In this document: positions 555-60,664 of the stretch, piece after piece
Position numbering within the stretch: position 1 is the first letter of the stretch
How the letters are laid out: every line of letters starts with the position of its first letter
Origin: Leucoraja erinacea
Taxonomy: Eukaryota
Direction: 5' to 3'
DNA: 64,000 nucleotides
Assembly (NCBI RefSeq): GCF_028641065.1
Contig: NC_073378.1
Location: 85,498,001-85,562,000, forward strand
The notes under the pieces: model-generated
The model's database searches: none
What the model was told of the DNA's origin: nothing
The model's input: only the letters and a program-made list of their open reading frames with translations
Position numbers and translations under genes: made by a program

Positions 555-1669
555 GTCAGTTACAAATCACACTTGAATAATGAGATATCATACTTTTCAG
601 CTTTGTTCAGGGCTTTTCAGAAATTTTCCACAAGCTTTTCATTCTTATTATTAATGGAGAGATAAGTTCCTTTCTTGCAGGGTGGCACCAGTTGTGGTTG
701 ACTTTTCCAAGCTCTCATGCCAATGAAGGACTGCATTATGGTTAATGCATCTGTGGTTTGATGTTGAAAGCCTGTGGATCCCACTGTGGTGCTTCATGCA
801 TTTCATTGTTCTTTTTTAAATTGTGTAAAAGATATCATGTTTTCCCCAAGTGCAAATGTAAATGTCTGTCTGTTGGCAATGTCCTGCAGCCTTTGCATTG
901 TCAACATGTTACATATGCAAAGTATATGCACAGCTCTCCCTCATACCTTCTTTGGTACCTGAAATTAAATTGATTCTCTCTTTCACAGTTCTGATGAAGA
1001 GTCCTTGATGTGAAACGTTTGCTGATTTTTGTTTACTGATGATTCCTGACCTGCTAATCTTTAAGGGGTAAAGATTAAAGGGGGTGTGTAGGACAAGTTT
1101 ATTTTACCCAGAGGATGGCGAGTGCCTGGAACACGCTGCCAGAGGTGGTGGAGGAGGCAGATATGAAAGACGTATTTCAAAAGCTTTTGGATAGGCACTA
1201 GGATATACAGGGATTTGAGCAATGTGGCTTTAGGTACAGGGAGATAGGAATTGGCCATGGCATCATGTTTGGCACAGCCATTGTGGGCTGAAGGGCCTGT
1301 TCTTGTGCTGCACTATTCTACATTCTATGTATTTGGGTTTTATTTGAGTGAGCAATTTTTTTTGTGGTAGATTTTGCTGTGTACTATTCTAGATAATTGA
1401 ATATTTACTTTTGAAGATTTTTGTTAGAAAATAATCTCCCTGCAGTTAACTTCTTTGCACCAAAATAAAGAAATTCATTTTAAGTCACAGTAGAATCTAC
1501 AACTTGTTCAGAACTCCATATATTTTCTGTGTAGTCTGCCCAATGCAACCATACAGACATATAGTGGCTACAACACCTCAAGTTAGAAATATTTTTCTAA
1601 TACCTAATGTTGTGATACCAAATGTTGTGATACGATTGGGTTTAAAATCAAAACCTGATCTAAATGGAC

Positions 1670-2740
1670 TTCAGTGAGGCATTTGATAAAGTTCCACACT
1701 GTGGACTGTTCTGGAGGTTACATTACACGGGATCCGTGGAGAGCTACTGATTGATTAGAGAATTGGCTTTATGGAAGGAAGTTGAAGGTAAAGGTGGAAG
1801 GTTGTTTTTCAGACTGGAGGACTATGCCAAGTGGTGTGCCTCGGAGGTTTGAGCTGGGGCCCATTGCTATTTGTGATTTATATTAATGATTTGGATTAGA
1901 ATGTAGAAGACTTGATTGGTTAGTTTGCAGGTGACACTAAGTGGGTAGTTTCGTAGATAGTGAACATAGTTATCAAAAATTGCCGCAGGTTACTATAGTA
2001 TAGATAAGTGTGGGGTGTTGCATTTTGGGAAGTCAAACCTGGGCAAGACCTTCAGAGTGAATGGGAGGGCCCCTGGGGAATGTCGTACAGCAGAGGGATC
2101 AAGGAGTGTAGGTACTTAGTTCCTTGAAAGTGGAGTCACGGGTAGATGGGGTACATTGGCCTTCATCAGTCAGGGTATTAACTATAGAAGTTGGGATGTT
2201 ATGTTACTGTTGTACAAGACATTGATGAGGCCACAATTGGAGTGTTGGTCATCCTGCTCTAGGCAGGATGTTGTTAGGCTGGGAATTGTACAGGGAAGAT
2301 TTACAAGGATGCTGCCAGGAGGGGGGCCTGAGCTATTGGGAGAGGTTCGATACGCTAGTACTTCATTCCTCAGATCACAGGAGGCTGAGAGGTGAACTTG
2401 TAGAGGTGTATAAGATAATGAGGGGAATAGATAGGATGCATGTGTAGCGTCTTTTACCCAGAGTAGGGGAATCAAGAACAAGTGGGCGTATGTTTGAGAG
2501 GGCAAAGATTTAATAGGAACCTGAGAGGCAACTTTTTCATGAAACATGAAATGAGCTGCCAGAAGAGGTAGTTGAGGCAGGTACTATTTCAAATCCATTT
2601 GGACAGGTACAGGGATAGGAAAGGTTGTGAGGAATATGGGCCAAATGTGGGCAGGTGGGACTAATATAGATGGGGCATCTTGGTTGGCATGGGCAAGTTG
2701 GGCCGAAGAGCTTGTTTCCATGCTGTGGAACTCTATAAAG
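1670..2740 (+). mobile_element. old degenerate CR1 LINE
   Basis: Remnant AFDKVPH, SGVP and GINYRSWDVMLLLYKTLMRPQLE motifs. Confidence 0.8.
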
Positions 2741-3745
2741 GTGAATACCTGATTTTCTTTTTCAGATTGAACCTGACCCTGCCTAACCTTTGCTGCTAGT
2801 ATAACAATTACATAACTGTTCATAAAACTGAGGATACATGCAGTCATGCTAATTAAACCATCCTAACCCAGACAGTGTACAACTGGACTAATTTTGACAC
2901 AAGCTACTTCAATCTGAAATGGTTCTTTAGACCGTAATACAAACTACCCGTGCCCACGTTCAGGTCCCACTGAGCTTAGGCTGAATAGCCAGGCTCCTCT
3001 TCATAGTTTTAAGTCATTCTGTCTCTGCAGACTAATCAAAACAACAGTGCTGAGAGAAAAAAAGCAGAAAATGCTAGAAATATTCACCAGATCAGAAGCA
3101 TTTGTAGAAACTAATTCAGGCCTCAACCTGAAACATTAACTCTGTTTCTCCTACCACATATGTGACCTGACCTGTTGAGTATTTCTAACATGTTCTGGTT
3201 TTATTTCAGATTTTCAGCCCCCGCAGTTTATTTGCATTTCAAACGCACCTGTGGTTTTTTAAGCATGATTCATTCCATTACCTTAATTTTCCCATTACAT
3301 CATTATTGACAGAGCTTTCGGTCATCATCGATATTTTGGAAATCCCAGTAGACCCACGGAGCCTCTGATTCCCATTCCACATTTTCAAAAGTTTTCAGTC
3401 ATCTTTAACTCTTCTACCATGGATCAGTAATTTTGATTTTTGTTTATGCCTCCGTCAGCATTATACTTGCGGGTCACCACTTTAATCCTCTTTAGCATGA
3501 TCTCTGTATTAATGGTTCCATGCACAGACATGGTGGTGATTAATGCCTTTCACATTTAGATTGTAGTATCAAGAATCAGTCACAATTACAAATCAATAGT
3601 ATGTAATAAAATACCTTGGATACCCAGCTCTTGATGAGCTGCAGTTACTGCTACCTTTGATAGAAATTAGTGTTTGCTGCCACCTCATGGATCTTCTGCA
3701 ACATTGCACGCACATTCAAATGAACTTACTTTCAAATGAACTTAC

Positions 3746-4850
3746 GGTTCTGACCGACATCCACTACAAATCCAGACTCCCATGGCTATCTGGACTACAC
3801 TTCTTCCCACCCTGCCTCCTGTAAAGACTCCATCCCCTACTCCCAATTCCTCCGTATACGCGGCATCTGCTCCCAGGATGAGGTGTTCCACACCAGGGCA
3901 TCTGAAATGTCCTCATTCTTCAGGGAATGGGGATTCCCCTCCGCCACCATAGATGAGGCTCGCACCAGGGTCTCTTCCATACCCCGCAACACTGCTCTCT
4001 CTCCCCATCCCCCCACTCGTAACAAGGGCAGAGTCCCCCTAGTCCTCACCTTTCACCCCACCAGCCGTCACATACAACAAATAATCCTACGTCATTTTCC
4101 GCCACCTCCAACATGACCCCACCACTCGCCACATCTTCCCATCTCCCCCCATGTCTGCCTTCCGCAAAGACCGCTCCCTCCGCAACTCTCTTGTCAATTC
4201 TTCCCTTCCATCCCGTACCACCCCCTCCCCGGGCACTTTCCGTTGCAACCGCAAGAAATACAACACCTGTCCCTTCACCTCCCCCCTCGACTCCATTCAA
4301 GGACCCAAGCAATCGTTCCAGGTGCGACAGAGGTTCACCTGTATCTCCTCCAACCTCATCTACTGCATCTACTGCTCTAAATGTCAGCTGATCTACATCG
4401 GTGAGACTAAGCGGAGGTCGGGCGATCGTTTCGCCGAACACCTCCGCTCGGTCCACAAGAACCTACCTGACCTCCCGGTGGCTCAGCACTTCAACTGCCC
4501 CTCCCATTCCCAATCCGACCTCTCTGTCCTGGGTCTCCTCCATTGCCAGAGTGAGCAACACCGGAAATTGGAGGAACAGCACCTCATATTCCGCTTGGGG
4601 AGCTTGCATCCGGCGGGCATGAACATTGAATTCTCCCAATTTTGTTAGCCCTTGCTGTCTCCTCCCCTTCCTTAACCATCGAGCTGTCTCCTCCCATCCC
4701 CCAGCCCTTGGGCTCCTCCTCCTTTTTCATTCCTTCTCCCCGCCACCCCCTATCAGTCTGAAGAAGGGTTTCGGCCCGAAACGTTACCTATTTCCTTCGC
4801 TCCGTAGATGCTGCTGCACCCGCTGAGTTTCTCCAGCATTTTTGTGTATC
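3746..4850 (+). mobile_element. 5'-truncated Penelope-like element (RT thumb/linker + GIY-YIG endonuclease + 3' region with hammerhead motif)
   Basis: YLDYTSSHP..CKDSIPYSQFLR; SNLIYCIYCSKCQLIYIGETKRR...RFAEH; HLIFRLG...GMNIEF. Near-TSD ttcaaatga(a/t)ctta at 3731 and 4851. Confidence 0.9.
4756..4787 (+). ncRNA. minimal type I hammerhead ribozyme motif in PLE 3' region
   Basis: CTGAAGA (4758-4764), A, stem II GGGT-TTCG-GCCC, GAAA (4778-4781), palindromic AACGTT stem III, and a 2-bp stem I (gt/ac). Confidence 0.7.
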
Positions 4851-4921
4851 TTCAAATGATCTTAAACAGGAGGAGGAGAAGGCCATTTGTTGCTATCAGC
4901 TTGCTCCACCATGCATTGAAC

Positions 4922-5122
4922 AGACAATAGACAATAGGTGCAGGAGTAGGCCATTTGGCCCTTCGAGCCACCACCGCCATTCAATGTGATCATGGCTGAT
5001 CATCCCAAATCAGTACCCCGTTCCTGCCATCTCCCCATATCCCCTGACTCCGCTATTTTTAAGAGCCCTATCTAGTTCTCTCTTGAAAGCATCCAGGGAA
5101 CCTGCCTCCACCGCCCTCTGAA
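4922..5122 (-). mobile_element. CR1/HER1 3' end nested in an older copy
   Basis: agacaatagacaatagg tail; reverse complement of 14060-14259. Confidence 0.85.
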
Positions 5123-6198: not shown

Positions 6199-6230
6199 GT
6201 TGAAAACAGACCAAAGTACTATGGAAGAGA
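6199..6230 (+). CDS. CHN2: beta-chimaerin coding exon (32 bp), VENRPKYYGR(E)
   Basis: Acceptor gctttcag and donor gtatgt. Peptide is identical to the chimaerin VENRPKYYGRE segment before the SH2 domain. Phase 0 to phase 2. Confidence 0.95.
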
Positions 6231-11278: not shown

Positions 11279-13374
11279 CTATAGGTAGAACAAAGATGAT
11301 TTCTAAACTCATTTATTGGCATCTCACATGATCCTCCATCTTCTACACTAATACACAAATTCTGTCTCATTGGATAGTTAATGGGACATAAAAAGGGCAA
11401 ACAGTAACTGTTTCTATATGATCCCCTCTCATTCTTCTAAATTCCAACGAATACAATATGATCACAAACAGTGTTTGTGATATGGCCTACTTCTGCCACT
11501 ATTTTCTATGTTTCTATGACATTCACACTTTATCTCAAACGTACTGTGCTAAATCGAATAGATCATCAACAGACCACAATCTGTACAAATTAGCCACAAC
11601 ACTTTCTCCTTGATAACCATCAGCACAACACAAGGCTCACAGTCGGTCACACCTCTCCTACACTTTGTCTCCCGTACTAAGTCACCCCAACCTTTCCCTC
11701 CCAACTCCAGTCCCGTCCCAACCCCCTGGGAAACTGTAGGGAGCGACAATCAACTGCCACATGATACAAATAATGTCATACACAAGAAAGGGCAGATGCT
11801 GGTTGACAAAAAGTGAACACACAGTGCTGGAGTAACACAAAGACGCAGCAGAAGTTTGGAAACGTCATCCCTTCGCCCATTCCTTCTCTCCAGAGATGCT
11901 GCCTGCCCCGCTGAGTGACCATACTGAGGGGATTCCCACGTATATGAAGTAGAGAGAAAAGTGAGTTCTACACGGCTCTGCCCAACTTTTGAGAATGGAT
12001 TTGGTGGTTTGTACCCACTCCCCCTCCCTGCCTACCCACCCACCTACCCACCAAGCCAGCCAGCCGGACCCCTCCTTGTTACAGCAGCAGAAGCGACATT
12101 TCCAAGAGAATGGGGCAGAGAGCTGGGGCAGGACTGGGATGGGAGCAGGGCAGATGAGGCACACCAAAGGAACAAACAAATTGATGGCTGCAAGGGGCAG
12201 GCGGCAGAAGTCTTGTGCCCCAGCGAGGTAGACCGCTCTTCCCCCTGCTAATGCACACACAGAAAGAGAGAGATGAGAGCAGAGAATGATCCCAGCCTAA
12301 CCCAAGAGTCTTGTCACCCCAGACAGATTAATGACACCTACGTATACCTCCACCCCCCTCCCACACCCAACCTCCCTCCACCTCAACTCACGCCTGGGCA
12401 CCAAAGCAGCTCAGGAGTCGAACCCTGAGCTCCGTCTCCCAACAATCTGATGTGAAAGAACAGCGGCTGTGGCTGCGGCCGGCCAGCACCCGACATGGAC
12501 CTCTCACACCCTCACACACGAAAAGTGTGTGCGAATAAACACAAACAAGGAATAAAACCAAAGCCTGGCTTGAAAAGCAACTAAACATATATTCCGCTTA
12601 GAACGAGCAGGCGCGGAGACATCCGTCCACATTCAAATATTTCATCTCCCATCTCCCCGCAGTGTGTAGACCTGGCAGTAAATTCAATTAAAATATAGCA
12701 AACCTCCGCCCACTGGTATTCTAACTACGTGATGCGTGTTTCAAACAAGTCCTAAGTATAACTGCTCAGGCACTGGCCGGTGTGCATTTTCCCTTTGTAG
12801 GTCACATCAATAGATGCGGCCGCGCTGAATTCTATCTTTAACTCAAAGTTGCAGGATGGAGCTGTCTTCTTTAACACTGTTGCTTCGGCGCCACCACCTC
12901 CTTGCTGCACAATAGCAGCGAGTGTGGGGCCGAGAACCTGCCTAGATAAGTTCTGAAATTGAATAACTTTCAATACTGAATCAGAATATACTTACTGTAT
13001 GAGATGCTGTCCAGCTCCTCTATTTGATACTTAAAACAGACCTTCATTCATGGCTGGCTCAAGAGTAACTCGGGAGAGGAACGTGGTAACTCGTGAGAGG
13101 AACTTGGTACATTGCAGAAATGAGAAGTAAACGGCAAACTTAGACATACACATGGGAACTCGTTTAAACTCGTGAACATAAACTTGGAATCTCGTAGACA
13201 ACCACGAGTGTGATTTTTTTTCTTTCACTCGGCATCACTCGTGGGTGGACTCGCACCGTGAGACAGGGCCGTAATTTTTTTAATTTGTGATGTCTTTTTA
13301 CCAGTGTTTGTGATATGTTTGATATGGATTCAGGAATCTTGCTTATCATTGATTATTCAATTTTCTCTTTGTAG

Positions 13375-13660
13375 ATTTGGATATCAGACTTTAAACTACA
13401 GATTATTCTATGATGGAAAGCACTTTGTAGGAGAGAAGCGATTTGAGTCGATCCACGATCTAGTGACTGATGGCTTGATAACACTTTACATAGAAACTAA
13501 AGCATCTGAGTATATTTCAAAGATGACCACAAATCCCATCTATGAGCACATTGGATATGCCACATTGTTGAGAGAACAAACTTCAAAGAGACTGATCAAA
13601 ACAAAGCATGACAGTAGGAAGGTGTCCTTGGTAAATGATGAAAACAGTTCCGTTGATAAG
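13375..13660 (+). CDS. CHN2: beta-chimaerin coding exon (286 bp), SH2 C-half and SH2-C1 linker, [42 protein letters not shown]...SSVDK
   Basis: Acceptor ttttctctttgtag and donor gtaaga; lies within ORF 13304-13720. Beta-type residues [27 protein letters not shown] distinguish it from CHN1. Confidence 0.97.
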
Positions 13661-14259: not shown

Positions 14260-15111
14260 CCGTGCTGATTGACTGGACTGTGAGTCTACACTACAAACCG
14301 TGGCTCACACTGGAAGTGGCGCTCACTCCGGAAGTGGCGCTCACTCCGGATGTCCCTCTCACTCCAGATGACCCGCTCAGTCTGGAGGCCACGCTCAGTC
14401 GCGTGAGTAGATTCAGGAGTGCTTTACTGTGATATATATATGTCCCGTGTGTGCGATGGAGGGTGTGAGTGATGGACTGTGGTGTGACTGTGTGCGTGAG
14501 AGAGATGGAGAGATGGTGTGTGTGTGTGTGTGTGTGAGAGTATGTGTGAGAGTGATGGAGGGGGTGTGTGTGTGTGAGATGGAGGGTATGTGCGAGAGAT
14601 GGAAGGTATGAGTGTGTGTGTGTGAGATGGAGCGTGTGGGTGTGAATGTGTGAGAGATGGAGTGTGTGTGTGTGTGAGATGGAGCGTGTGGGTGCGGCTG
14701 TGTGTGTGTGTGATGGAGGGTATGAGTGTGAGGGTATGAGTGTGTGTGTGTGTGAGGGTGTGTGTGTGTGTGTGAGCCCACCAGCCGTGACTGATCTGCC
14801 AGCCCACCAGCCGTGACTGATCTGCCAGCCCACCAGCCGTGACTGAACTGCCAGCCCACCAGCCGTGACTGAACTGCCAGCCCACCAGCTGTGACTGACT
14901 GAACTGCGAGTCCCAATAATCCGTTCGGCCCACAATGTCCATACTAGCCCTCTGGAAACTAGTCCCTTTGGTCCACAAAACCCATAATAGCATTCAAGAA
15001 AGCCCCCCCCCACTGGCCACCAGTATTGAATTGGTGGAGAGTTGGAATATTGCGTTGGGGGACCAGCCCTCCCGTGTGAGAATGTGACCCAAAGGAGCCC
15101 ACTTAGTCTAG
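14260..15111 (+). mobile_element. 5'-incomplete non-autonomous Helitron with internal minisatellites
   Basis: 3' ~200 bp homologous to 33060-33268, ending cccacttagtCTAG|T. Contains 18-bp, TG-rich and ~25-bp tandem arrays. Confidence 0.8.
14445..14775 (+). repeat. TG/GA-rich compound microsatellite inside the Helitron
   Basis: (tg)n tracts interrupted by gagatggag. Confidence 0.95.
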
Positions 15112-17802: not shown

Positions 17803-17930
17803 AGAAGAAAGGTCTCGACCCAAAACGTTGGCTATTTCCTTCGCTCCATAGATGCTGCCTCACCCGCTGAGTTTCTCCAGCATTTTTCTCTACCTTCGAT
17901 TTTCCAGCATCTGCAGTTCCCTCTTAAACA
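17803..17930 (+). mobile_element. short PLE-derived 3' end inserted into a decayed CR1
   Basis: ggtctcgacccaaaacgtt...gatgctgcctcacccgctgagtttctccagca, near-identical to 4766-4845. Confidence 0.8.
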
Positions 17931-19045
17931 AGAAGTAGGAACCAATCTCTTTTGGAGTTCAGTGGAATGTAGGTTTTCCTATGCAAGATTCTGTGGAAAC
18001 TTAAACATGGTAGGTATTGATGCACATATCTAAATCTGGTGGTCACAGTTTTAGATAGAAGGTACCCTATTTAAAATGGAGATAAATAGAAAGCCTTTGG
18101 AATTTGCAACTTAGAGAGTTATTGAGGCAGAGTCATTAAACATAAGCAAGGCTTTTTGGCAGATTTATTTGACTACAGATGCTTACGGCTTGTGGGACAT
18201 AAAATAAAGCAGTATTAAGACAAGGAATGCATTTTGCTGAATTATGCTGCAGGGTCAAAGGATATTATGGCCTACTTCTGCTCCTATTTCTCAATCAAGC
18301 TAACTGTATTCTGGTTTTATTGTAGAAAGATCGTAAATATTCCAACTGAACAAAGTGATGTATATCAAATTATAAAACCATGAAAGGGATTTAAGTAGTG
18401 TGGAGTCTGTGCACCTTGTAAAGTTTTTGCTCTTTCCTGTTACAATAGATAATTTGAGTTTGGAATCATGGAAGGAATTAGCAATCCACATTTGATTATT
18501 CTTTTGAAACATGCTTTTTAAGATAAGAAAAATAATTATTTTTGGCATCGCTTTAAAACATAATGAAATATTCTATTATGTGATGTTACAGCACAAGCTT
18601 TTCCAGGAATATGCATCTGTGAACATATATTGAATCTGTGTGCATTATCTAAAGAATAATTGTATTTACAATCTCATCGTATGATTGAGATGTTTAGATA
18701 TTATCTACTGAAAGCAATAGAAAAAAAAACTATCTTCTGTATCCCAAGTGGCAGCTGTGAAACTACATTCCAAACTGAAATAGAAATAGAAATTCTTGGA
18801 AATATGAAGGCTTTTTAATCTAATACCAGAAACATACAGAGATCTAAAACAAACTGCTTTTCCCTTCTCGATGTTATTGTCATAGCAACATGGTTACTGG
18901 AATAGACTGCTCAGTCATTCAATTGTATCATGAGCTACAGCTCTCGATCATATTCCTGAAAATGTTGCACTGTAATTTGGCACCTTGCTGCTTTGCACCC
19001 GTCATTGTATTATTTATTGTTGCATTGATCATCACCATCTATATT

Positions 19046-19269
19046 ATTGTGTAAGAAGGAACTGCAGATGCTGGGTTAAACCAAAGATAGACACAAAAAG
19101 CTGGAATAATTCAGTGGGACAGGCAGCATCTCTGGAGAGAAGGAATGGGTGACATTTTGGGTCGAGACCCTTCTTCATACTGGTTAAGGGAAAAGAAAGA
19201 TATAGACAGTGATGTGGAGAGATAAAGAACAATGAATGAAAGATATGTAAAAAAAGTAACGATGATAAA
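19046..19269 (-). mobile_element. short PLE-derived hammerhead-bearing element
   Basis: TSD accatctatatt at 19034-19045 and 19270-19281. Reverse complement reads atgaagaagggtctcgacccaaaatgtc. Confidence 0.85.
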
Positions 19270-20600: not shown

Positions 20601-21378
20601 AATCAGAAGATGAGAGATGTAGGGATATGAACAGGTGAATACAGAGCAATGTGTAATAAAGAATAGACGGTGAGAGAATTGAGTTATGAAATTACCTTGC
20701 TGTGTAAGTAATAATGACAAAAACATATTGGAAATCCTCAATAGGGCAGTTACCTTCTGTGCAAAATACCTCCAGACCAGCTACGAGCTTCCGGCATATT
20801 TTGCTATTGTTATATACTTTCCGTATTTTTAGATGGGAGAGGTTATTTTTCCCCACGAACACATCAATACATGACTAAGTCAAGGAGGATGATGGGTATT
20901 TGAAACATGAAGCATGCAGCTGTATATTTCCACAGTCTTGACCTGGCCTCTTCAGAGTGAGAGGGTGTGGGAAAAGTTGTCTCAATTGTCGGGGTGAGAG
21001 GGGGGACAGTCTTCTTCAGCTAACGTTTAAACAATAAAACCACACGTTAGAATTCTGAAATAAAGTAGAAAATTCTGAAAATCTCACCATGCCAGGCTGC
21101 ATCTATGGAAAGCAAAACAAGAGTGAAAGTTTCAAGTCTGAGACCCTTTATCAGAACCATGAAAGAAGAAAAAAAAAACAAGTTAACCTGCAGTTGCAGA
21201 GAAGATGGATGGGATAAAAGGGAATATCTCCGTTAGGATGAAACCAAATTAAATACAGATTATGATTATTTGTGTTACATTGCAAAAAGCCAGACTGTTG
21301 TAGATGCTTGAGATTAATCATTGATTTCAGAAAGGGGAAGTTGCATTGCAATGGTGGGCTGGCAGTGGAGAGAGTTAA

Positions 21379-21918
21379 GGGCCTATCTCACTATGGCGAC
21401 CTTATTTACGAGTTCAGGAGAGTTTGCGCTCACCACAAGCTCGCAGCATGGTCAAAGCGTGGTCGTAGGTGGTCAATGGTAAGTCTCCTTCAAGGTCGAG
21501 AGGAGTTCCCGCATAGTGGTTACTACTCGCGGAAATATTTTCAACAAGCTGAAATCTTTTCAACCGCTTTCCCTGGCCCCTGCTTTTGCGATNNNNNNNN
21601 NNNNNNNNNNNNNNNNNNNNNNNNNNNNNNNNNNNNNNNNNNNNNNNNNNNNNNNNNNNNNNNNNNNNNNNNNNNNNNNNNNNNNNNNNNNNNNNNNNNN
21701 NNNNNNNNNNNNNNNNNNNNNNNNNNNNNNNNNNNNNNNNNNNNNCCAGCTTGCGGTTTTTCAGCCGAGTGCCCCGAGCATGAAGGTCGCAGACAGTTTG
21801 CTGAAAAAGTCAATGCCTCATTCTTCAAAGTAAAAAAAATGGCATCACTGAATACTCTCATAAACTTCTACAGATGTTCCTGATGAGAAACACCCCGGAG
21901 GGAAGTGGGACAGGCCAT
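21379..21918. mobile_element. PIF/Harbinger-like MITE spanning an assembly gap, inserted in a Rex/Babar fragment
   Basis: Imperfect TIR gggcctatctcact / agtgggacaggcca with (T)TAA duplicated. Host frame IIDFRK...AVERV resumes after the element. Confidence 0.6.
21593..21745. other. assembly gap (153 N)
   Basis: Run of n characters. Confidence 1.
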
Positions 21919-24254: not shown

Positions 24255-25620
24255 AATGTCGCCCATTCCTTCTCTCCAGAGATGCCGCTTCACCTGCTGA
24301 GTTACTCCAGCATTTAGTGTCTAGGTATAAAGAGCTGGAGTAACTCAGCAGATTAAGCAGCAACTCTGGAGAACATGTGCAAGTGGCGTTTCAAGTTGAG
24401 ACCCTTCTTCAGAGTGATTGAGGGGGGAGGGGGGAGAAAGCTGGAAGAGGGGAGAGGCAGGTGATAGGTGGATGTTGGTGAGGGTTTTTTTTTAGAAAGG
24501 CAGACGATTGGAACAAAGGCCAGAGAAAAAAACAGGATTGCAGAGTTGCAAAGCTGGAAAGGAGGAAAGTAGCAGGAGGGGAACAATAGGTGGAAGTCTA
24601 GGTGGCATACAAGGGAGGGAAGATGTGAGAGAGAAAGGAAGGGGCGGGTTAGTTGGAGATTGGAGAAATCAATGTTCATACCATTGGGTTGTAAGTTATC
24701 CAAGCAGAATATGAGATGCTGATCCTCACTCTGAGGCACGTGACCTCACTCTGGCAATGGAGGAGGCCCAGGGCACAATGATCAGTTTCAGTTTAGTTTA
24801 TTGTCACGTGTACTGAGGTACAGTAAAATGCTTTTTGTTGCGTGCTAACCAGTCAACAGAAAGACAGTACATGATTACAATCAATCAATTTACAGTGTAT
24901 AGATACATGTTAAGTGAATATTGTTTTGTGCAAGGTAAAGCCAGCAAAGCCCAGTCAAGGATATTCCGAAGGACATCCAAAGAGGTAAATGGTAGTTCAG
25001 CACTGCTCTCTGGTCGTGGAAGGATGATTCAGTTGCCTGATAACAACCGGGAAGAAGCTGTCCTTGAATCTGGTGGAGTGCGTTTTCACAATTCTATGCC
25101 TTTTGCTTAATGGGAGAGGAGAAGAGGGAGAGGCCAGGTTGCAATTTGTCCTTGATTATGTTGCTGGCCTTGCTGAGGCAGTGGGAGGTATAAATTAAAT
25201 CAATAGAAGGAAGGTTGGTTTATGTGATGGCCTGGGCTGCGTACACAATTTGCTGCAATTTCTTACGGTCCTGGATGGAGCTGTTCCCAAAACAAACTGT
25301 GATGCATCCTGATAAAATGCTTTCTATGGTGCATCTGTAGAGGTTGGTGAGAGTTGTCGGGGACATGCCAAACTTCCTAAGCCTTCTAAGGAAGTAGAAG
25401 CGTTGGTGTGCCTTTTTGGTCGTTGCTTCAATATTGGTGGGCCAGGAGAAGTTGTTGGTGATATTGACTCAAGAGGAATTTGAAGATTTTGACCATCTCA
25501 ACTTCGGCACCTTCAATGCAAATGTCAGTATGGGAATGAGACGAGGATATAAAATGGTTAGCAACTGAGAGATCCAGTAGCCCTTGGTGGAACGAGCGCA
25601 AGTGTTTAGCGAAACAAATG
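24255..25620 (-). mobile_element. Penelope-like 3' fragment (minus) split by a Rex/Babar insertion, plus a tail-to-tail plus-strand PLE end at 24255-24325
   Basis: Minus-strand HLIFCL...GMNIDF (24353-24739). The endonuclease continuation FAKHLRS...VANHF lies at 25525-25620. Confidence 0.75.
24780..25520 (-). mobile_element. Rex/Babar-like LINE 3' portion
   Basis: Tail tcagtttcagtttagtttatt on the + strand. Reverse complement encodes FKF(L)..NITNNFSW..NI-type and FLRRLRKFG segments. Confidence 0.7.
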
Positions 25621-33358: not shown

Positions 33359-33538
33359 AGACACAAAATGCTGGAGCAACTGAGCGGGTCAGGCAGCATC
33401 TCTGGAGAGAAGGAATAGGTGATGTTTAGGTTCAAGACCCTTCTTCAGACTGATGTCAGAGGAGGGGGCGGGACAAAGAGAGAATGTAGCTGGAGATAGT
33501 AAGACTAGTGGGAGAACTGGGATGGGGGAGGGATAGAG
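33359..33538 (-). mobile_element. short PLE-derived hammerhead-bearing element
   Basis: 15-bp TSD atagttaatattggt at 33344-33358 and 33539-33553. Reverse complement contains ctgaagaagggtc. Confidence 0.85.
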
Positions 33539-34716: not shown

Positions 34717-35343
34717 ACTTTCCCTTGCAACCACGGGAAATGCTACACTTGTCGCTTTACCTCCCCCATTGACTCCATCCAAGGACCCAAGCAGTCCTTC
34801 CAGGTGCGGCATTCCATTCACCTTCACCTCCTCCAACCTCATCTATTGCATCCGCTGCTCTAGGTATCAACTGCTCCTCATCGGTGAGACCAAGCGTAGG
34901 CTTGGTGATCACTTCGCCCAACACCTTCACTCGGTTCGCAATAACCAAACTGATCTCCCGATGGCTCAGCACTTCAACTCCCCCTCCCATTCCGTATCTG
35001 ACCTTTCTGTCCTGTACCGCCTCCATGGCCAGAGTGAGGCCCACCGTAAATTGGAGGAGCTGCACCTCATATTTCGCTTGGGTAGTTTACACCCCAGTGG
35101 TATGAACATTGACCTCCAATTTCAGGTAGTCCCTGCTTTCTCCTTCTTTCCCCTCCCCTTCCCAGCTCTCCCACAGCCCACTGTCTCCGCCCTCCTCCTT
35201 TTCTTCTTCCCCCCCCCCCCCCCCCCCCCCCCCACCCCCACATCAGTCTGAAGAAGGGTCTCGACCCAAACCGTCACCTATTTCCTTCGCTCATTAGATG
35301 TTGCCTCACCCACTGAGTTTCTCCAGCTTTTTGTCTATCATTA
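34717..35343 (+). mobile_element. Penelope-like element 3' fragment (GIY-YIG endonuclease + hammerhead remnant)
   Basis: SSNLIYCIRCSRYQLLLIGETKRRLGDHFAQH. TSD aggcagact at 34708-34716 and 35344-35352. Motif ctgaagaagggtctcgaccc at 35248. Confidence 0.9.
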
Positions 35344-37058: not shown

Positions 37059-37314
37059 CTATTATCTAGCTATACGTGCAAGATATTTTGCTACAACAAA
37101 TAAAACGCTTGCAGGTTTTCTTCAGTTTCCAGTTACAAATTTGATAACAAGACATTTATTTTTATTGAATAGCCTTAAATAGTGAGATGTGCTTACAAGA
37201 AAAAATTATACTGAAGAAAACCTGCAAGCGTTTTATTTGGTTAGGAACCTGACAGTAAATTAAGGCTACACTTTAAGGGCTGAATGTTTCAAGTGACAAG
37301 AGTTCCTTAACCTA

Positions 37315-37760: not shown

Positions 37761-37940
37761 TATAGGAAGGAACTGCAGATGCTGGTTTACACTGAAGATG
37801 CACAAAATGCTGGAGTAACTCAGTGGGACAAACAGCATCTCTGGAGAAGGGGCTCGACCTGAAACGTCCCCCATTCCTTCTATCCAGAGATGCTGCCTGT
37901 CCCTCGGAGTTACTCCAGCATTTTGTGTGTATCTTTACTG
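37761..37940. mobile_element. 180-bp fold-back PLE-derived element
   Basis: TSD gaaaatcttg at 37751-37760 and 37941-37950. 45-bp inverted arms at 37801-37845 and 37883-37927 surround a hammerhead stem II/GAAAC remnant. Confidence 0.85.
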
Positions 37941-41245: not shown

Positions 41246-41329
41246 ATAGACAAGATAGAAGCATATCTCCAATTGGGGTGGAGCAGGTTACATTGGAGAT
41301 ATGCTTCTAAGTCAGTGGAGCTAATATGA

Positions 41330-44250
41330 CCTGATGTTTCAATCCATATAGCAAGTCAGCACTCTTGGTATTTGCGGTGGGAATGGAGTGATGAAAGGTG
41401 GGGTAGGTACGTCATCGGGGTCATCAGGTGGGCACCCTCCTTCTTTGACGTTTCATTGGTAGGCCCACAACGTCTCTAGAGGGCTCAACGGTGATACCTG
41501 GTGTCCCTGGTACACTCCCCTCAATTCCATAACCTCCTGTCTTCATCTTGCAGCCCAATTGTTATCTTTCCTTTTGATCTAAATTGCTGCTTTTTTCTGC
41601 AGAATTTGATAATGACTTGATTGCTTGTTGGAGGGAGCGACCTCTCACCCCCATTTTCTTTAATAGCCTGGTCATAGATGGAGCAACAAATCCCCTGCAT
41701 CCCAATTCTACAGGGAAAATCATGGTCTTCCAGCCATTCTGGGCAGCTTCAGTTGACAGTTCAGAGTTACACAAAAAAGCTGGAGAAACTCAGCGGGTGC
41801 AGCAGCATCTATGGAGCGAAGGAAATAGGCAACGTTTCGGGCCGAAACCCTTCTTAAGACCAAGTCAGAGTACTTGGTCTTTTTCCTCCCATAAGCTTCT
41901 TCAACACCTCTTCTTCCCATGGAACTGTCAATTCCACAATGAATGCTAACTTGGCTGTTGTGGACCACAGGACCATGTTTGGCCGGAGTGTTGTAGCCAC
42001 AATGTATGGGAGAAACACAAGCTTTTTTTCCAAGTCCACTTCCATTTTCCAATCCCGAGCAGGCTGCAGAATGCTTGCACCCATTGATGTTATCTGGTGC
42101 TCTGGGTATTGGCCTGCTGGTACAGATGTTGTGAAGTGGACATTTCCTGCCAATGTTTGTGGGGAAGCATTTGTGATCGTTCACCTCTGTTGCAGGATTG
42201 ATGCCAGCTGTCTGAGAACTTGGTTATGCTGCCAAGTCTAACGCCTTTGGGCGAGACTCTGTCTTTACTGCACTGATGTTGCCTTGTGCCATTGAGGAGC
42301 ATTTGGGATGAGCCCGAGCCCGGCTCTCCCATGTTGGACTTGGCCAACCACATCCTGGAAATGAAGAGCAGACTTAGCACTCTGAACAGATGGGGCCCAC
42401 TTCCTCCCCGTTGCCACACGGGGGGCCACTGTTCGAATAACAGTATCTTCAGATTCAGTGAGGGTCATGGCCAAACTTGCTTTAGTGCATTTGAACTCTT
42501 CCACAACACCTGCAATGGGTAATTCCAATTTGCCACTCCCGTACTGTCCGACAGCACTTAAGCATCGTGGAAGTCCAAGCCACTGTTTCACATGTGTGCT
42601 GATCATTCTTTCCAGCTTTTCCACTTTGTTGATGGGGATTTCATACATAGTTAAAGGCCACATGATTCTTGGTAGTATGCCAAATTGGAAGCACCACAGC
42701 TTGAGTTTTCCTGGTAGCAAGGTCTTGTTGACGCAAGCTATGTGCGTGATGGTAACCTTTTTGAGTTGTTCAAACTGCTCGTTGTCCCTGAGCTTTGCAT
42801 CATACATTGGCCCAAACTCTTCACTGGCATTTCTGAAACAGTTGGAACAGGTATTCCGTCAATATGAAATCTTTGATCCTTGACTTGACCTTTGACAATG
42901 GAGATGCTTCTGCACTTGCTGGGTTTAATCTTCATCCTTGCCCATGTGATGTTTCGATGAAGTTTTTCTAGAAGTCTCTGGTGCAGGGGACAGTTGTCGT
43001 TAGTGTTGTTATATCGTCCATATAGGTTCGTGTAGGTGGCAATCGCTGACCACACTGTAGCTGTTTTCCTCCCACAACCCATTTTGTTGCCCTGATAATG
43101 AGATCCATTGCCATAGTGAAGGTCAATGGGGAGATGGTGCACCCCGCCATGATGCCTACTTCCAGTGGTTGCCACGCTGTGGTAAAGTCTGATGTTGTGA
43201 GACAAAATTACAGATCTTGGAAGTAGTTTTTTTTTACCAGATTTGTTACTATTGCAGGCACCTGAAAGAATTCAAAAGCAGTCCACAGTAGCGAATGAGG
43301 AACTGATCCATAGGCGATGGCCAGATCGAAGAACAAGACATGCAGATTATTTTGTTCTTTCTTAGCAGTCTGGATTTGATGCCATATGATGCTGGTCTGT
43401 TCAAGGCATCCTGAGAAGCCTGCTATGCCAGCCTTTTGGATTGATGTATCAATGAAATGGTTTTGTTTCAGATACTTTGTAAGTCTTTTCGCCACCACAC
43501 TGAAAAAGATCTTGCCCTCTATCTTAAGAAGGTTTATTTGCCAAAACTGTTCGATTGTGGACAATTTATTTTCTTTTGGGATCAGCACTCCCCACGCCCT
43601 TCGCCAGGTTTTGGGGATAACTTGCTTTTCCCATACAACCTCATGTTCCTCCAGAGGAATTTCAGAATATATGGGGCATTCTTGTAGACACAATATGAAA
43701 CGCCATTAGGGCCTGGTGCAGACGCTGTTCTTGCCTTCCTCACTACTTCTTTTACCTCACTCAGCTTGGGAGAGCTAATGTCAAATTGATGTTGTGGGGG
43801 TGAGATTGGTGGGATGTCGGCAGGGACAAAAATCGGTTCATTTGTTAACTCATCAGTGTGGATGGTTCTGACGTTGTCCATCAACCTCATTTTTTGACGC
43901 TTTCAGGGACCCACTTTTCTCTTTTGTGAAAATGCCTTTCACAAACTTAAAGGAATCTTTGTAGGTCAGTTCTTGCTTTTTCCTTCTTTTTTGCGTTGTT
44001 TCCTTAAATTCTCTGCTCTGCACAGCTTAGCCTCTGTTTTAGGTCCTCTTGAATGAGGTTGATGCCCTCCCTTTCTTCTGCTGTTGCTTTTTTCCACATC
44101 TTCCTCGGGCCTCTTCTTTCTTTAACAAGTCGTTGGATTTGCTGGAGATGACAGGACTTGGGGGGAGGAGCCCTATCTTTCCTGCTGAGTTGTTCCTTCT
44201 CACCAAATGTCTCCTTTCCATAGCTGTAGCCTAGATCACCCAACTTATTT
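41330..44250 (-). mobile_element. decayed HERO-like (R2 superfamily, restriction-like endonuclease) non-LTR retrotransposon
   Basis: RT motifs QKAGIAGFSGCLE, FFDLAIAYGSVPH, MAGCTISP and YMDD; PGKLKLWC...ILPRIMWPL; HNQVL; RLE motifs RPNMVLWS...IVELTVPWEE and FPVELGCRGF. Multiple frameshifts and deletions. Confidence 0.85.
41768..41864 (-). mobile_element. short PLE end nested in the HERO-like element
   Basis: TSD tcagagt at 41761-41767 and 41865-41871 interrupts the host KTKYSELSTEAA frame. Reverse complement reads aagaagggtttcggcccgaaacgttg. Confidence 0.8.
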
Positions 44251-45495: not shown

Positions 45496-47009
45496 TATAG
45501 ACTCCTCAAATGTTTTCAAAGTTGTTTGACTTGAGGGGATTTGTAATTATTCTGGTGTATATTAGTTTAGGTTAAAGAAACAGACCCTTTGGCCCACAGA
45601 GGAGCTTGTGTTGCTGCCTCACAACTCCAGTGTCCCCGGTTGAATCCTGATGTCCAGTACTGTCTAAAAATCATAGAGCTCTATGATCTTTGGTACTGTC
45701 TGTGCATGTTCTCCTTATGACTAAATGGTTTCCTTGTGTACTTCAGATTCCTCCCACAACCCAGTGAATTGTCATTGATAAGTTAATTGGCTGCTGTAAA
45801 TTGGCTAAAATGGAAAGACAACCGTTGATGAGAACACGAGGGAGAAGAGGTTACAGGGAAAATTTAGTCGAAGAATGCAGTTGTTCTGAGAGCCAGTAGG
45901 TTCAGTGGGTTGAAAGATCTCCTATGTTTATAAGAACATATCAGAACTTGAATATCTTTCCTTGCTCAATTATTTTATTGTTCCCAAACATTGCCATTAA
46001 TTAAAATGTCAGAAGAAATTTACAAATAAAATTACTATTTTACTAACTACTTAAATTTAAAGTAAACGTCTATTACTGAGAAGCAAACCAAGGCTGCCAA
46101 ACATTTTATGACACAGATATCACAGTTGATATATTTGATGGAGTAGTTAAAAGCAGAATGTACTGAAATTTCCTTTTTACTAAATCATAAGATGAGAAAA
46201 TGTGCTATTTGAAAGCTGAATAGCTCTTTGTTTAGCAACAAATGTCCTTTATGATGAAAAAACCCCACAAAAAAACCCTTTTTCTTACGAGATATTTATT
46301 TTTACTGTTGTGAGCTTTGAACAATGCAGCACAGTGCAATGTCTGGCAAATTCACACTATCAGCAAAAATTAAGGAATGCTCACAGAAATCAATGTGGAT
46401 GTGGCATGACAATGTGTCTGTTGTCTGAATTAGCAGTGAGCCCTCGTGTTGCTTTTACGATCATGACCTTCAGCAAAATTAGATTAAATGCTTGTCCTCA
46501 CTACTGCAAGAGGGATGACAATTAAAGGTCTGCCAGCAGGCGCCTCTTGAGTTTCTTGTTTCATTGCCTTTGTTGGCTGATCCATAGCAGATGCGATCTG
46601 GAGCAAATGAAATTGCTGGAGGAACTCCATGTATTAGGCAGCATCTGTGGAGGGAAATGGACAAATGACGTTTTTGGCTGCGATCCTTCTTCAGACGCAG
46701 ATTTAGAGGAGATCTAAATATTGGTGTTGGAGTGAGGAGAGTGATTACTTTTAACTCTCAGGATGAGTCTAAATATTGGCCAGTGAGAAGCTGAGCAGCA
46801 GAAGATGGAAAGGTTCCAGGTTTAATCCTTCTCTGTACCAGGTTACTTGGGTATAGCACTTAATTACGACAATCCTGGGAAAACAGAATGAAAATCAGCT
46901 CTACTACTGATTACTGTCCAATGAGCTTCCTGGGAGTTGGTTTGCTGTCCAAATGTGAAGCCAGTGAAGAAAATGCAGGTGCCCGGGCTGAGATACATCA
47001 TGAAATACG

Positions 47010-47960: not shown

Positions 47961-47962
47961 TG

Positions 47963-54150: not shown

Positions 54151-54295
54151 CACACAAAAAGCTGCAGTGACTGAGGAAGGGTCTAGACCCAAAACATCAC
54201 CCATTCCTTCTCTCCTGAGCTGCTGCCTGTCCCACAGAGTTACTCCAGCTTTTTGTATCTATCTTCGGTTTAAACCAGCATCTGCAGTTCCTTCC
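54151..54295 (+). mobile_element. short PLE-derived element with short inverted 5' segment
   Basis: TSD ataa(t/c)attgcagatt at 54136-54150 and 54296-54310. Contains ctgaggaagggtctagacccaaaac. Confidence 0.8.
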
Positions 54296-55554
54296 ATAAC
54301 ATTGCAGATTGGTGTTTTACAGAAAACAAAGGAAATGCTATCTTTATACTAAATAGCCATTTTTATACATAATAAACCAAAAATTAAGTATAAACACGTC
54401 ATCTTATCATTCTCGCAGCTCATTACTCTGACATTATATTGGTGATAATTTGATAAACCACAACTCGGCGTAGATGAAAGAGTAGCTTTATTTCCTTGCT
54501 TTATCCCCATAAATGTTGCTGTTGTTGCATGATTGTATAGCACAACATTCCTGCTGCATTCCATTATTCTCTTGTTACCTGTGATTATGGCAATTAATAT
54601 TTTCAAAACATTATTAATGTAATTTTGTACTTCATTAACGTTTCGATATTTTTACTAAATTGAACATTTTCACACAGTGTAATATAATCACATTTTAATA
54701 TAACTGCAGTTAATGAGGGTATCATATTTAATCTGACAGATATATTGTGACTTGCTGCATGGTTTCAATTTCAACATGGCTTATATTGTAAATTAACCTA
54801 CCAATTATGTCGAGAGGCTCAATGACTCACCAAATACAGTGTACTCAGTTAAAATTAATCATCCATTTCAAGTTTTGGTGACTATTTGAACATGAAATTT
54901 TGCATTTTCTTTCATTAATTATTTCAATTTTCCTCCTGAAAAAACAAGTAGGAAGTTGCAGGATCGGATGCTGCATAGAACTTTAAGTAGTTTTGTTTTA
55001 AACTAAAATAAATTAAATAAACTAAAAGTAGTTTTTGTTCTTGTGGCCCAAAACGTGCTCCCACCAATGCTCTATGTAAGTTTACCACTGACCCACACGG
55101 TAATGATGTACTTTTGTGGATTGCTGGGGTTGAATTACTGCCAAGTGCCACCCTGGTACTAAAAGGTGAAGTCGTGCTTTGTGGCAGGACCTTCTGTGTT
55201 ATAGTTCCTTTTTTGTGAAGAAGAGCATATCGAGAACTTCCGCTCATTACATTTCTGAAATACTTCCCCCGCCTCCCATCTTGGTCATAGGCCACCCTAT
55301 CATGTGTTCCAAATAAACTTTCAAAGGCCATCATAACTCTATGAAACAAATAAAGCATTTAAAAAGATCTTTTGAACAAAAGAATTTCAGCTTTTAAAAC
55401 AAAAAACATTTAAGTAAATATATTCAAAATGCAATTACCTGGCTCCTTCGGAGCTGTTCCTCTCCATTGAAGCAACTGAATTTGTTGTTTTTGTACCACA
55501 TCTAAATGGGTTCAGGTTCAGCAACAGATTTCCTAGCATAAGTTCTGCAAACTC

Positions 55555-55863
55555 TGGTCGTGGGCTCCCCTCGGTCATGACTGATCATGGGTGATGCATC
55601 CTAGTTGTCGGCTGCTTGCTCCAAACCTCAGCTAGAGCAGCGTCGCTTGTGGCTGAAGAGACCAATGCGGGAGTGACAGTCTCTGTCGCAGAGGTCATTT
55701 GCGTGTGGTCTCTGGTTTGTTGAAGTTGCTGCGCTCCTTTCTGCGTTCAACAGTTTCTCTTCCCCCGTTTTGAGATGTTGGTTCAGGGTACCTCTCCACC
55801 TTGTGCGGTCAGCTGCAAGGCTCTCCCAGGACTCCACATCGATGTCCAGCACCTTCATATCTC
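55555..55863 (-). mobile_element. RTE-clade LINE 3' fragment
   Basis: WESLAADRTRWR and the C-terminal CDRDCHSRIGLFSHKRRC zinc-finger-like motif. Confidence 0.75.
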
Positions 55864-56369
55864 AGGTAAGTATAACTCTGAAGCACAGTCAAGGAGTTAA
55901 CAATCAACCACAGCCAACAAGTTACTCTTCCATGTTTCAGTGAGAAAGGTAGGTTTATTGGTATCTGCATGGAAAGTGATAATAATTCAACATGATGCTG
56001 GTGGCATTTCCCAATAAGTTCAGGCCTATTAAAACAAACACGGAAACAGAAGGTGGCAATATTTTTTAAATGAAAAGATTATCAAAGCTAATGTGGGACC
56101 TCCAGAAACAGAACCAAGAAAAGTTATAAAATGTAATAAACTGAAGATGCTGGTTTATACCAAAGATAGACACAAAATGTTAGAATATTTGCATTAATGA
56201 ATTTATTTTCACACTAATTCCATGAAAACAAATTTTATTTAATGTATCAAATGTCTCACTAATTAAATGTGAATTTCCTGATGTAAAAATTCCACAAGCC
56301 AAATGGCCGTAAAGCACAGGGGTGATCATCTGTGTGAACATCAATTTAAAAAACAATTAAAGAAATGAA

Positions 56370-57440: not shown

Positions 57441-58791
57441 AGATCTAAGTGTGTGCAGCATTCTCATTCATTGTGCGTTAGTGTTAAAAATGACAATGGA
57501 AATTCTCTCTTTTATCTTTCTCACTTTCTCCACCTCATCTTCCCACCTCCACTTCCCTAAGACTTTTTTCTACTACCATCTCCATTCTCATTTCTACTTC
57601 CCCCACCTCCTTTTCAATCCCCTCATCTTTCCTATTTGTTCCTGCCCACCTCCAACTCCTCTATTTATAATAGAATTATTTATACATCATAGATAAACCA
57701 AAGCAACCAGATTTTCCATGATGCCATTCGATAAGATCTAAAACTGTGTCCTGAGTGTTGTAAGATATCCCACGATGATCATTTATTGTTATTTATAGGA
57801 CGTTACTCTTTACCGTGGTTTGCTGCATTTAACTTCATAATTTTATATAAAATAATGAATTATCTGTAAAGTACTTTGTAACATCCTGATGATGTGAAAA
57901 TGCTCTAATTCAATAGATTAATTCTTTCCAGTATAAATTCATGAAACACATACGCATTTACAGTTCATTTCCAGAATGTCCACTGTATGAATATGCTTAT
58001 TATTTCGAAGACCCGTGAAATTAGCATTCATAGAATTAAAGTAGTATCTTGATAAATGGTATTTTATGATGAATGCCATGAATTTCAAAATTATTTAATT
58101 GACTTTTCATCAATAGCTGCATCTCTCCCCTGTTACTGCCTCAACCCAAAAACAAAACCAGAAAATTATAAACGACAATGATCGTCTGTACAGATTCTTA
58201 ACATAGTTAGCATTTAATGTCATTTTGACAGTGAACATTATTGTTATCTTCATGCTGACTTTTTTGCTTCTGGCTCTAACCCACGGTGCAATAACACAAT
58301 AATAATTAATATTTATAACTTACAATTAGAAACAAGAGGAGGTCACTCAATCCCTTGAACCTGCATTGCAACTCAATAAATCCCTGGCTTTTATTTATAT
58401 TCTATTTATATTTATTATTATTTTATTTATATTCCATATATAAATTGTTTAAGAATTGGCAATACTTGGTCCAGTTACAGTATAAAAGAAACTAGAAGCA
58501 TAAAAAGTTTTTTGCATACATTTTGCATATTTCAAAATTACAAGCATGTTATAATTGGAATGGGGCCATATATTCCATTGTGCTCATGTTAAGTGGGAGG
58601 AAATCTAGACAGAATGGCCATCCAGTAACTCCTCAATCCAGCAATGTTGCCACATCTCCTTTCCTCCTTTCCCATCCTCTTGTTGATGGTTGATATCATT
58701 CACCTAATTTTCTTCCTTCAACATTTAATCTCATAGGTACAGAAATGACTAAGAGTTTGATGTTTAGCAAAAAAAAAGCGTTTAACAGCTA

Positions 58792-60273
58792 GCTATACTA
58801 TTACTAAAAATCTCATCTTGTTTTCTTCCGGTTAGCGTTGTTTTTAAATTTGCGCAAAAACGGTACCCTATATCGCTAGTATTTTTTCGCCACCTTACTC
58901 ACCGTTCTCCTCTGCTCCAAGTGCATCAAGTTTTGTTCCGATCGGTGGAATATTACAAAAGTTATGAAGGTTTAAAAATCGTAAGATCAGCAGATTGGTC
59001 TTCTCTTCTGTCCGTCAACGGGACAGCGACTCCCCTTCCGTCACCCGCTGTCAGTCACTGGGGCGGAACCTCATGTGAGGTTCAAATGACAAATAAATGG
59101 TATTGTATTGTTGGAGACAAAAGCCCTGGAGGCCGGGCTGGGTCCGGAAGCCGTCTGCAAGCCGTTCACATCCATCCGCCCTGAAGCGGTGAGTGAGTGA
59201 ACTGTGAGTGGACTGTGAGTCGTGAGACCAGAAGCCGTGACTGAGTGAACTTTGCGTCCAGAAGCCGTGACTGAGTGAACTGTGAGTCCAGAAGCCATGA
59301 GTCAGTGAACTGTGAGTCCAGAAGCCGTGAGTCAGTTGACTGAGTCAATGAACTGTGAGTCCAGAAATCGTGAGTCAGTGAACTGTGAGTCAATGAACTG
59401 TGAGTCCAGAAGCCGCCCGGTGTGCGGATGCGGCCCGGAGCGCGGAGCCTGCTTGACTGCTGCAAACTCGCAGTGAGAGTGGGGGTATTGAGGGAGCCGG
59501 GTATTGAGGGAGCCCCCCACAGCGGCAAGCCACGGCAGCGATAGGCCATGGCAGCGCTCCCCCTCCCCACCGGTGCATGCCTGAAGCCTTCCACATCCCT
59601 CAGCTACAGAACGCTCCCGCCGGCCCCCACCTGAGGCCTCCCCATCCCCAGCTGCAGGACTAGCCCAATAATCCATTCGGCCCACAATGTCCATACTAGC
59701 CCCCTGGAAAACTGTCAATTTGGCCCACAACACCTAAACTAGCCCTCCAGAACCCCCCCACTGACCACCGCCTGAAGCCATCCCCCTCCCCAGGCTGCAG
59801 GACGCTCACCCCTTTCCCACCGGCCTCCAACAGCCCCGCCTGAAGTCGTGCCCCTCCCCAGGCTGCAGGAGGCTTCCCCCCCCCCCCCCACCGCCCCCCG
59901 ACAGCCCCCACCTGAGGCCGTCCCCCTCCCCCGGCTGCAGAACGCAACAAGAGACACAACCAGAAAGAATGGACTGAATAAATCGCCTCTTTAACGTTTA
60001 AATTGTTGTTATATTTTAAGCTTTAATAAATCTCTTTTCCGCTTGTCGTGCCCGTCAGCTGCGTGTTCTATGTCATAATGGGAACCCAATAGGAGGGAAT
60101 TGCTGCGCCACCAGAGAACCGCTAGGAATGGACGGGGGGGTGGGGGTTTGAGGGGGGGGGGAGGGAGGGCAAGGGGCGGAGTGGGCCACCCTCCCCCATC
60201 CTTCCTGCAGTACCCAAATAGTAAAAGCAAGGACCTATAGGTGCTGGCTGACAAGCTTTTTTCGCTTTCCTAG
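58792..60273 (+). mobile_element. non-autonomous Helitron variant with 30-bp minisatellite
   Basis: 5' ctatactattact similar to 32406. Shared core ataatccattcggcccacaatgtccatactagccc. Near-palindrome agcaaggacctataggtgctggct followed by CTAG|T at 60270-60274. Confidence 0.7.
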
Positions 60274-60664
60274 TTCTAGCAAAGGGCCTTTGATCTGGAA
60301 AGTTAATTGTTTCCCTTCTCACATGCAGCCTGACCAGCTGAGCATTTCCAGCATTTTCTGTTTTAATTTTAGATTTCCAGCATTTGGAGGGTTTTTTTTT
60401 ATTTTAATTTCTTTGGGATTACTTTGTGTGATTTTAAATTAAATTTGTGCTAGGGTCTGAAAATATGCAGAGCAATATATTGTAATCACTGCCATGTCAC
60501 TAAACTAATTTAATCTGCCAATTATTCTCCTTACCTTAGTAATCATCATTGATTTACTTCTGTAATTAAAAGTTCAGGAGTTCTCAATCTGAAACGACTC
60601 TTCTACTAATTGTATGGCATGAATAACTTGTCATGCATTTGATTGGTCTAGCTCCTCAGCTAGA

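Follow-up and report, generated by a model that had tools for sequence, protein, structure and literature searches.

The window analysed here is a stretch of 64,000 nucleotides from the 2.19-Gb Leucoraja erinacea genome (contig NC_073378.1, positions 85,498,001 to 85,562,000; G000:C2:85498001-85562000), and it carries numerous copies of a short module with a hammerhead ribozyme motif. This module is the pseudo-long terminal repeat (pLTR) or 5' leader of several canonical, autonomous Penelope-like elements (PLEs) of the Neptune/Nematis type and is not a separate mobile family. Our main finding is that solo copies of the module tend to begin at one place just ahead of the hammerhead, and we regard this fixed start as a solid detail of the PLE mechanism. 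We favor, with moderate confidence, the view that such solo stubs are copies of the first 95-135 nt of the PLE's own RNA, starting at about position -3 (position 0 being C3 of the hammerhead core). The family itself is ordinary, in that PLE ends with minimal hammerheads have already been described and the copies are decaying; it is the fixed 5' end that matters.

A fixed 5' end just before the hammerhead

The 5' ends were tabulated in a sample of 1.2 Mb, consisting of 22 arbitrarily placed (not random) stretches in two 600-kb halves. Profile searches gave 468 matches (208 + 260, with between 6 and 46 in each 50 kb of the second half), of which 440 mapped to a reference copy linked to an open reading frame (ORF) and 309 passed a filter of 82% identity and 45 nt; 159 were left out. 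Young copies fall into five sequence types, labeled A to E in this analysis; the type D references are poor, and 0 long copies were assigned to that type. Among the 309 copies, 64 extend past -12, 103 end at -12 to 0 (the "peak" copies) and 142 begin inside the module. Eighty end at -6 to -1, with a mode at -3, which amounts to 80 ends in 737 bases at risk or 10.9% per base; the corresponding stop rates are 3.5% at 0 to +4, 3.1% at -12 to -7 and 0.2-1.2% in six further intervals (p=6e-62 relative to a pooled rate of 0.8%). The first-pass annotation had set randomly distributed ends, beforehand, as an outcome that would speak against it, and the ends proved to be far from random. The pile-up is present in each 600-kb half (in the unfiltered mapped set 62/196 and 60/244 copies end at -8 to -1), and all types contribute to the peak (A 11/46, B 7/36, C 11/24, D 6/25 and E 68/178). 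An artefact of missing subfamilies was considered and rejected, as the peak seen in a first histogram with few references persisted after ORF-linked references of all types had been added.

The peak copies are joined at their 5' ends to flanking DNA in 63 cases, to an inverted arm in 37 and to a tandem piece in 3. Target-site duplications (TSDs) of at least 8 bp accompany 17 of the 50 testable flank-joined peak copies versus 1.7% of shuffled pairs, and are found with 4/40 long copies and 13/73 of those that begin inside the module. No upstream sequence is shared in any of the 1953 pairs of flank-joined peak copies. Exact counts for type A across the whole genome give 24,385 cores, of which 16,055 reach -3, 13,471 reach -4 and 7,137 reach -10; point mutation, running at a few per cent per site, explains this fall-off only in part, and among 30 loci with a base other than C at -4, 29 are true ends and 1 is a point mutant. 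A pattern in which the first bases are repeated has 693 matches genome-wide, chance and non-repeat cases among them. Among thirty loci that were read, 11 distinct insertions repeat their first bases in a short, perfect form, and the upstream piece of every one of them stops anew at -5 to -2 with the untranslated region (UTR) absent. Head-to-tail dimers restarting at -3 were also found (L244, L246).

Ends at the predicted ribozyme cut (+28) were looked for as well and rejected as a source of copies, with 3/309 at +26 to +30, which is under background. As a separate observation, one full-length element (L158) starts exactly at +28. A search of the openly accessible literature, apart from Repbase and the PMC4209133 supplements, yielded no paper that reports a pile-up of 5' ends before a PLE hammerhead.

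The module as the end of Penelope-like elements

That the module is a PLE end and not an unrelated element is, in our judgement, nearly certain. The Penelope derivation proposed in the first-pass annotation is borne out by modules behind GIY-YIG ORFs and inside full-length tandem elements, where the module forms the junction between tandem units and the likely ORF start lies about 40 nt behind the tail. Each of the five young types is found behind a GIY-YIG end; the oldest copies in the window (991, 3060, 21050 and 60270) stand outside that set. [quoted passage not shown] All 7 translated loci carry a CX2-5CxxC linker ahead of the endonuclease, which marks the Neptune and Nematis clades in the available text of PMC8557442. 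From this linker and the domain order we would place these elements among the endonuclease-containing (EN+) PLEs, with Neptune and Nematis left together. At 20 loci with the 5' part of the ORF, a whole colinear module precedes the ORF in 8 and a partial one in 1, and the colinear modules are themselves preceded by a 5'-truncated unit of varying length; L160 plus L293 form a single locus with the order module-ORF-module. The L160 ORF (oriented 1093-3260) also has a long, repetitive stretch rich in proline and histidine between its N-terminal region and the RT, and a pyrimidine-rich run ending in AG directly before its likely ATG could be an intron end.

The 3' ends of the module fall into two classes, at about +93 and +130 (114/309 at +86 to +99 and 104/309 at +120 to +137), and an inverted arm adjoins 102/309 copies. 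As far as the available text of PMC8557442 and PMC3846280 goes, EN+ PLEs of the Neptune/Nematis clade are alike in their RT plus C-terminal GIY-YIG, CX2-5CxxC linker, partial tandems, inverted 5' copies (described for PLEs in PMC3846280), optional 30-40-nt tail, TSDs of 7-15 bp and heavy 5' truncation; the sharp excess of solo copies at -6 to -1 seen here is not described in that text. Ends of type D contain 65-66-nt tandem repeats, seen at two loci (L137, L134), that run from the GAAAC box without a CUGA box and so have half a hammerhead per unit; this repeat appears in RNA reads with a frequent joint that goes back 58.

The module is abundant, with a load of about 3% of bases in the first 600 kb, and extrapolation from the non-random 1.2-Mb sample gives roughly 850,000 pieces genome-wide. 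A degenerate intact-core pattern has 50,153 exact matches in the genome and 0 in a backwards control. PMC4209133, in its available text, gives about 9,000 motifs for X. tropicalis by a search method that differs from ours, and describes minimal hammerheads both within pLTRs and as single, scattered motifs, thousands of which are attributed there to truncated PLEs.

Origin of the solo copies

We would picture the origin of the solo stubs as follows. Transcription may start at about -3, at an initiator-like TCAGT, which would place both hammerhead and priming sites close to the 5' end of the RNA. An enzyme that primes at the internal tail sites would run off this template after about 95 or 130 nt, and run-off could be followed by attachment through microhomology, re-copying of the first bases, fold-back into an inverted arm or a jump to another RNA. 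Priming on the downstream repeat of a tandem transcript would give the ordinary 5'-truncated and full copies. The template would be mostly uncleaved RNA, because the copies retain bases that lie upstream of the cut. A single model, in which internal priming acts on an RNA starting at -3, would account for solo stubs, dimers and fold-backs alike and is testable with existing assays.

Published work, within the available text of the sources, provides parts of this scheme: reverse transcription by a PLE protein is primed at two internal sites delimiting the "tail" (PMC11167929), and the promoter of Penelope is internal (PMC2377424). The anole Poseidon element PAc (PMC11167929) resembles the skate elements in having two 3'-end classes about 35 nt apart, which fit internal tail priming, and a mostly uncleaved template. 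It differs in that its ORF starts at stem II and its tail is coding, whereas the likely ATG here lies behind the tail; the available text of that study does not map the RNA 5' end.

Several observations weigh against this run-off model. A start at the hammerhead is not general, because in D. virilis it lies well upstream: the available text of two papers puts the start 46 nt ahead of a 75-nt intron (PMC2377424) and the end of that intron next to the hammerhead (PMC4209133). The 5' ends are scattered over about 7 nt, and of the 103 peak copies, 37 join an inverted arm at a natural 9-nt palindrome, itself a possible hot spot (57/192 flank-joined copies still end at -6 to 0). None of 9 inspected full-length elements begins at -3. 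A cap-derived G at -4 shows no excess (31 of the first 100 rows versus a 29% background). GG does precede starts at -2 in 654/2847 cases versus a 12.6% background (1.8 times), and of the two readable examples, an inverted arm accounts for one and TSD microhomology for the other. Finally, no pile-up of RNA starts or ends on the module was listed in four RNA runs. These runs come from two studies and were chosen by species label, which does not establish that they are from this genome's species; about 0.25-0.37% of their reads match a correctly oriented module, and 90-96% of the module reads continue into unlike sequence (poly(A)-primed libraries would miss circles). The module copies are passengers in host transcripts, and the reads neither show nor exclude a start at -3. 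In single-cell libraries hammerhead reads run about 7 to 1 antisense to the module, which may reflect oligo-dT priming on A-runs or depletion of sense copies in transcripts.

If instead the template were a long RNA, the same end could be a truncation hot spot, at which the enzyme stalls or switches strand just past the hammerhead, at the pyrimidine tract and CAG, at C-runs or at the 9-nt palindrome near -1; in a possible variant, a 3'-splice-site complex is bound at the pyrimidine tract and CAG. We consider such stalling unlikely, although it draws on real features of the ends: every type has a pyrimidine tract ending in CAG at -4 to -2, the ends are spread and frequently inverted, a cap G is absent, and smaller peaks occur at further hairpin positions (+3, +15). 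Types with unlike upstream UTRs nevertheless stop at the identical place, and re-copied first bases stop there again in 11/11 cases. Moreover, a polymerase is generally expected to stall in front of an RNA structure and not after it.

The first-pass annotation had proposed that these copies are a non-autonomous, SINE- or retrozyme-like family (SINE, short interspersed element), which would be transcribed from master copies of its own and mobilised in trans. Such a separate family is not supported, and we judge it quite improbable. A fixed 5' end, two fixed 3' ends, TSDs, a very high copy number and a few head-to-tail dimers would all suit it, and a stub that holds both start and priming sites could be transcribed again; pLTRs are moreover the presumed source of vertebrate retrozymes, according to the available text of bioRxiv 10.64898/2026.07.22.740005, in which one cartilaginous fish is among the species studied. 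On the other hand, ORF-linked copies occur in every young type, the pile-up is found in every type, only 3/103 peak copies are tandem, and the units begin before the ribozyme rather than at its cut. The majority sequence is identical in solo and UTR-linked copies, and no column separates the two after correction (95 nt, small samples and limited power; the best columns have p of 0.002 among 251 tests for type E and 0.06 among 112 for type A). In 1.2 Mb we saw no arrays of whole modules longer than dimers, and the hammerhead core is not preserved, its columns decaying like invariant columns downstream. A SINE promoter head is usually of the Pol III kind. The stubs do share with SINEs a defined 5' end, a 3' end common to the partner element and TSDs, but a foreign head is absent, the whole unit is colinear with the PLE, and no solo-specific lineage was found. 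Metazoan non-LTR (long terminal repeat) retrozymes, in the available text of PMC7229834 and bioRxiv 10.64898/2026.07.22.740005, are likewise non-coding, related to pLTRs and equipped with a type I hammerhead and long TSDs; they are 150-450-bp tandem repeats with mostly canonical hammerheads, expressed as circles (PMC7229834), whereas the stubs are monomers of 95-135 nt that carry a minimal motif and are colinear with the autonomous element.

Spliced templates, with the CAG serving as a 3' splice site and the stubs deriving from RNAs that join a PLE or host exon to a hammerhead exon, are very improbable: the pyrimidine tract plus CAG, the A or G before -3 in most cases and the D. virilis intron that ends at helix I (available text of PMC4209133) would fit, but TSDs sit next to the module with no more than a few bases in between, which largely excludes this origin, the upstream pieces share no exon in the pairwise comparison above, and many ends retain only the G or fall at 0.

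Returning to run-off copying from -3, we would suggest, tentatively, that PLEs make a second, major insertion product, a short run-off of the 5' leader extending from the start site to an internal priming site. If this were true, the genome would record the start and priming sites hundreds of thousands of times, and the hammerhead would occupy the extreme 5' end of the mRNA, where an occasional cut would strip off the cap. Stubs that retain the start site and a priming signal would be re-copiable, which would make the step from PLE to SINE or retrozyme an easy one. The fixed 5' end bears on how PLEs make pLTRs, solo ends and inverted arms, and on what purpose the hammerhead serves.

The hammerhead motif and the copies in the window

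The motif is a minimal type I hammerhead, as the first-pass annotation had it, with core boxes CUGANGA, GAAA and UH, a stem II and a palindromic helix III; a strict descriptor finds 42 such motifs in the 1.2 Mb and 0 in the reversed control. The loopless ACGT stem III was found in copies, and helix I has 2 bp, like that of D. virilis in the available text of PMC4209133. Metazoan PLE minimal hammerheads are described there as sharing the extra base after A9, the G10.1-C11.1 pair and the palindromic, loopless helix III. Both stem II versions noted earlier exist and both pair; the changes between them are one-sided (U-G to U-A and U-G to C-G), with no double compensatory change, and at each pair A-U takes the place of G-C in just 5-6 of the 254 copies. 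The hammerhead family has no match in an Rfam scan of the window at E<=10, a scan that misses this minimal motif, and monomer folding gives no hammerhead fold and a stability not above that of shuffles (z 0.16 to -1.4). Luense and colleagues are said to have worked on dimer cleavage. Core columns are conserved at 0.89-0.96 (0.68 for G12, which lies in a CpG), similar to invariant columns downstream. All core bases are kept in 78 of 254 motif-spanning copies, and the core is intact in 35/99 peak copies versus 27/61 long copies. We see no sign of selection on the ribozyme once it has been inserted, and its core bases decay like their neighbors.

A profile built from the copies has 18 matches in the window and 0 in a reversed-sequence control; the oldest copies (982, 3114) were detected only with a second profile. 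The profile search placed a module copy at each of the roughly 15 places given in the first-pass annotation (991 to 60280) and added an unlisted tail-only fragment on the minus strand at 56137-56190. The earlier description of the best copies as having a hammerhead core holds for the one at 4758, which passes the strict descriptor; the remaining copies have core or stem II lesions or no motif, the lost base often being G12, within a CpG, and some copies begin inside the motif. The copies at 4758 and 35248 are directly behind a GIY-YIG ORF end, and those at 19046, 24419 and 33359 have PLE UTR upstream; these are therefore 5'-truncated PLEs. TSDs of 7-15 bp, also claimed earlier, could be read directly in seven insertions; those at 17804, 46593 and 11784 are 6-bp or weaker, and 991, 3060, 21050, 24255 and 60270 have none.

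One of the truncated PLEs (type A, plus strand) occupies 3740-4850 and comprises a frameshifted RT C-terminus, a CX4CX2C-type linker, the GIY-YIG domain (to 4648), UTR and module, within a 9-bp TSD (3731-3739 and 4851-4859). It contains the sole strict minimal hammerhead of the window, at 4755-4787 on the plus strand (4755 being position -3), with CUGAAGA at 4758-4764, stem II at 4766-4777, GAAA at 4778-4781 and a loopless stem III; the previously predicted cut after 4785 follows from hammerhead numbering. The type B element at 34717-35343 (plus) consists of a GIY-YIG end (34717-35116), UTR and a module with a broken core, and has a 9-bp TSD. On the minus strand, truncated PLE ends lie at 19046-19269 (about 86 nt of UTR, a tail, a core broken at C3 and G12, and a 12-bp TSD) and at 33359-33538 (about 90 nt of UTR, tail absent, G12 lost, and a 15-bp TSD). 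In a tail-to-tail pair at 24255-24660 (upper limit approximate), the plus copy (24255-24322) begins within the module, and the minus copy, from 24320, is preceded on its upstream side by UTR and a GIY-YIG remnant.

Solo stubs are found at 17804-17931 (plus; +2 to the tail end, with C3 and U4 missing and a 6-bp TSD that overlaps by microhomology), 41768-41864 (minus; leader type from -2, short 3' class, G5 lost, 7-bp TSD) and 46593-46696 (minus; older, from -2, G12 lost, with a doubtful 6-bp TSD). The stub at 54151-54300 (plus) runs from about -4 to the tail end, with a short inverted piece in front, G12 lost and a 10-bp TSD. Inverted pairs occupy 3057-3232 (old and head-to-head, 3057-3114 minus and 3112-3232 plus, CUGA box lost), 11784-11918 (rearranged, mixed strands, hammerhead core absent) and 37761-37940 (head-to-head, mixed strands, tail on the inverted arm, A6 lost, 10-bp TSD). 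The remaining old modules are at 985-1062 (plus; 3'-eroded, with both core boxes at 991-997 and 1012-1019 and stem II unpaired), 21050-21162 (minus; G8 lost, with a weaker relic at 20927-20955) and 60268-60392 (plus; core decayed). A 153-N run at 21593-21745 lies a short way upstream of the copy at 21050-21162.

The host gene is a chimaerin on the plus strand, with exons at about 515, 6199, 8451, 13376 and 51700. The exon at 13376-13615 encodes an SH2 domain nearer to beta2-chimaerin (144 bits) than to N-chimerin (123 bits), which agrees with the earlier placement of sense copies inside a CHN2 pre-mRNA, as plus-strand copies do lie in chimaerin introns. Copies beyond 51801 are probably intragenic as well, the exon at about 51700 being the last one located. 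Any effect of the sense copies on the chimaerin pre-mRNA would depend on the single intact motif, which would need a partner. The window also holds two mutually related, minisatellite-like arrays with 15-30-nt units (14489-14904 and 59177-59421) and a near-perfect inverted repeat of 139 nt (37099-37237) that is probably a small DNA-transposon derivative.

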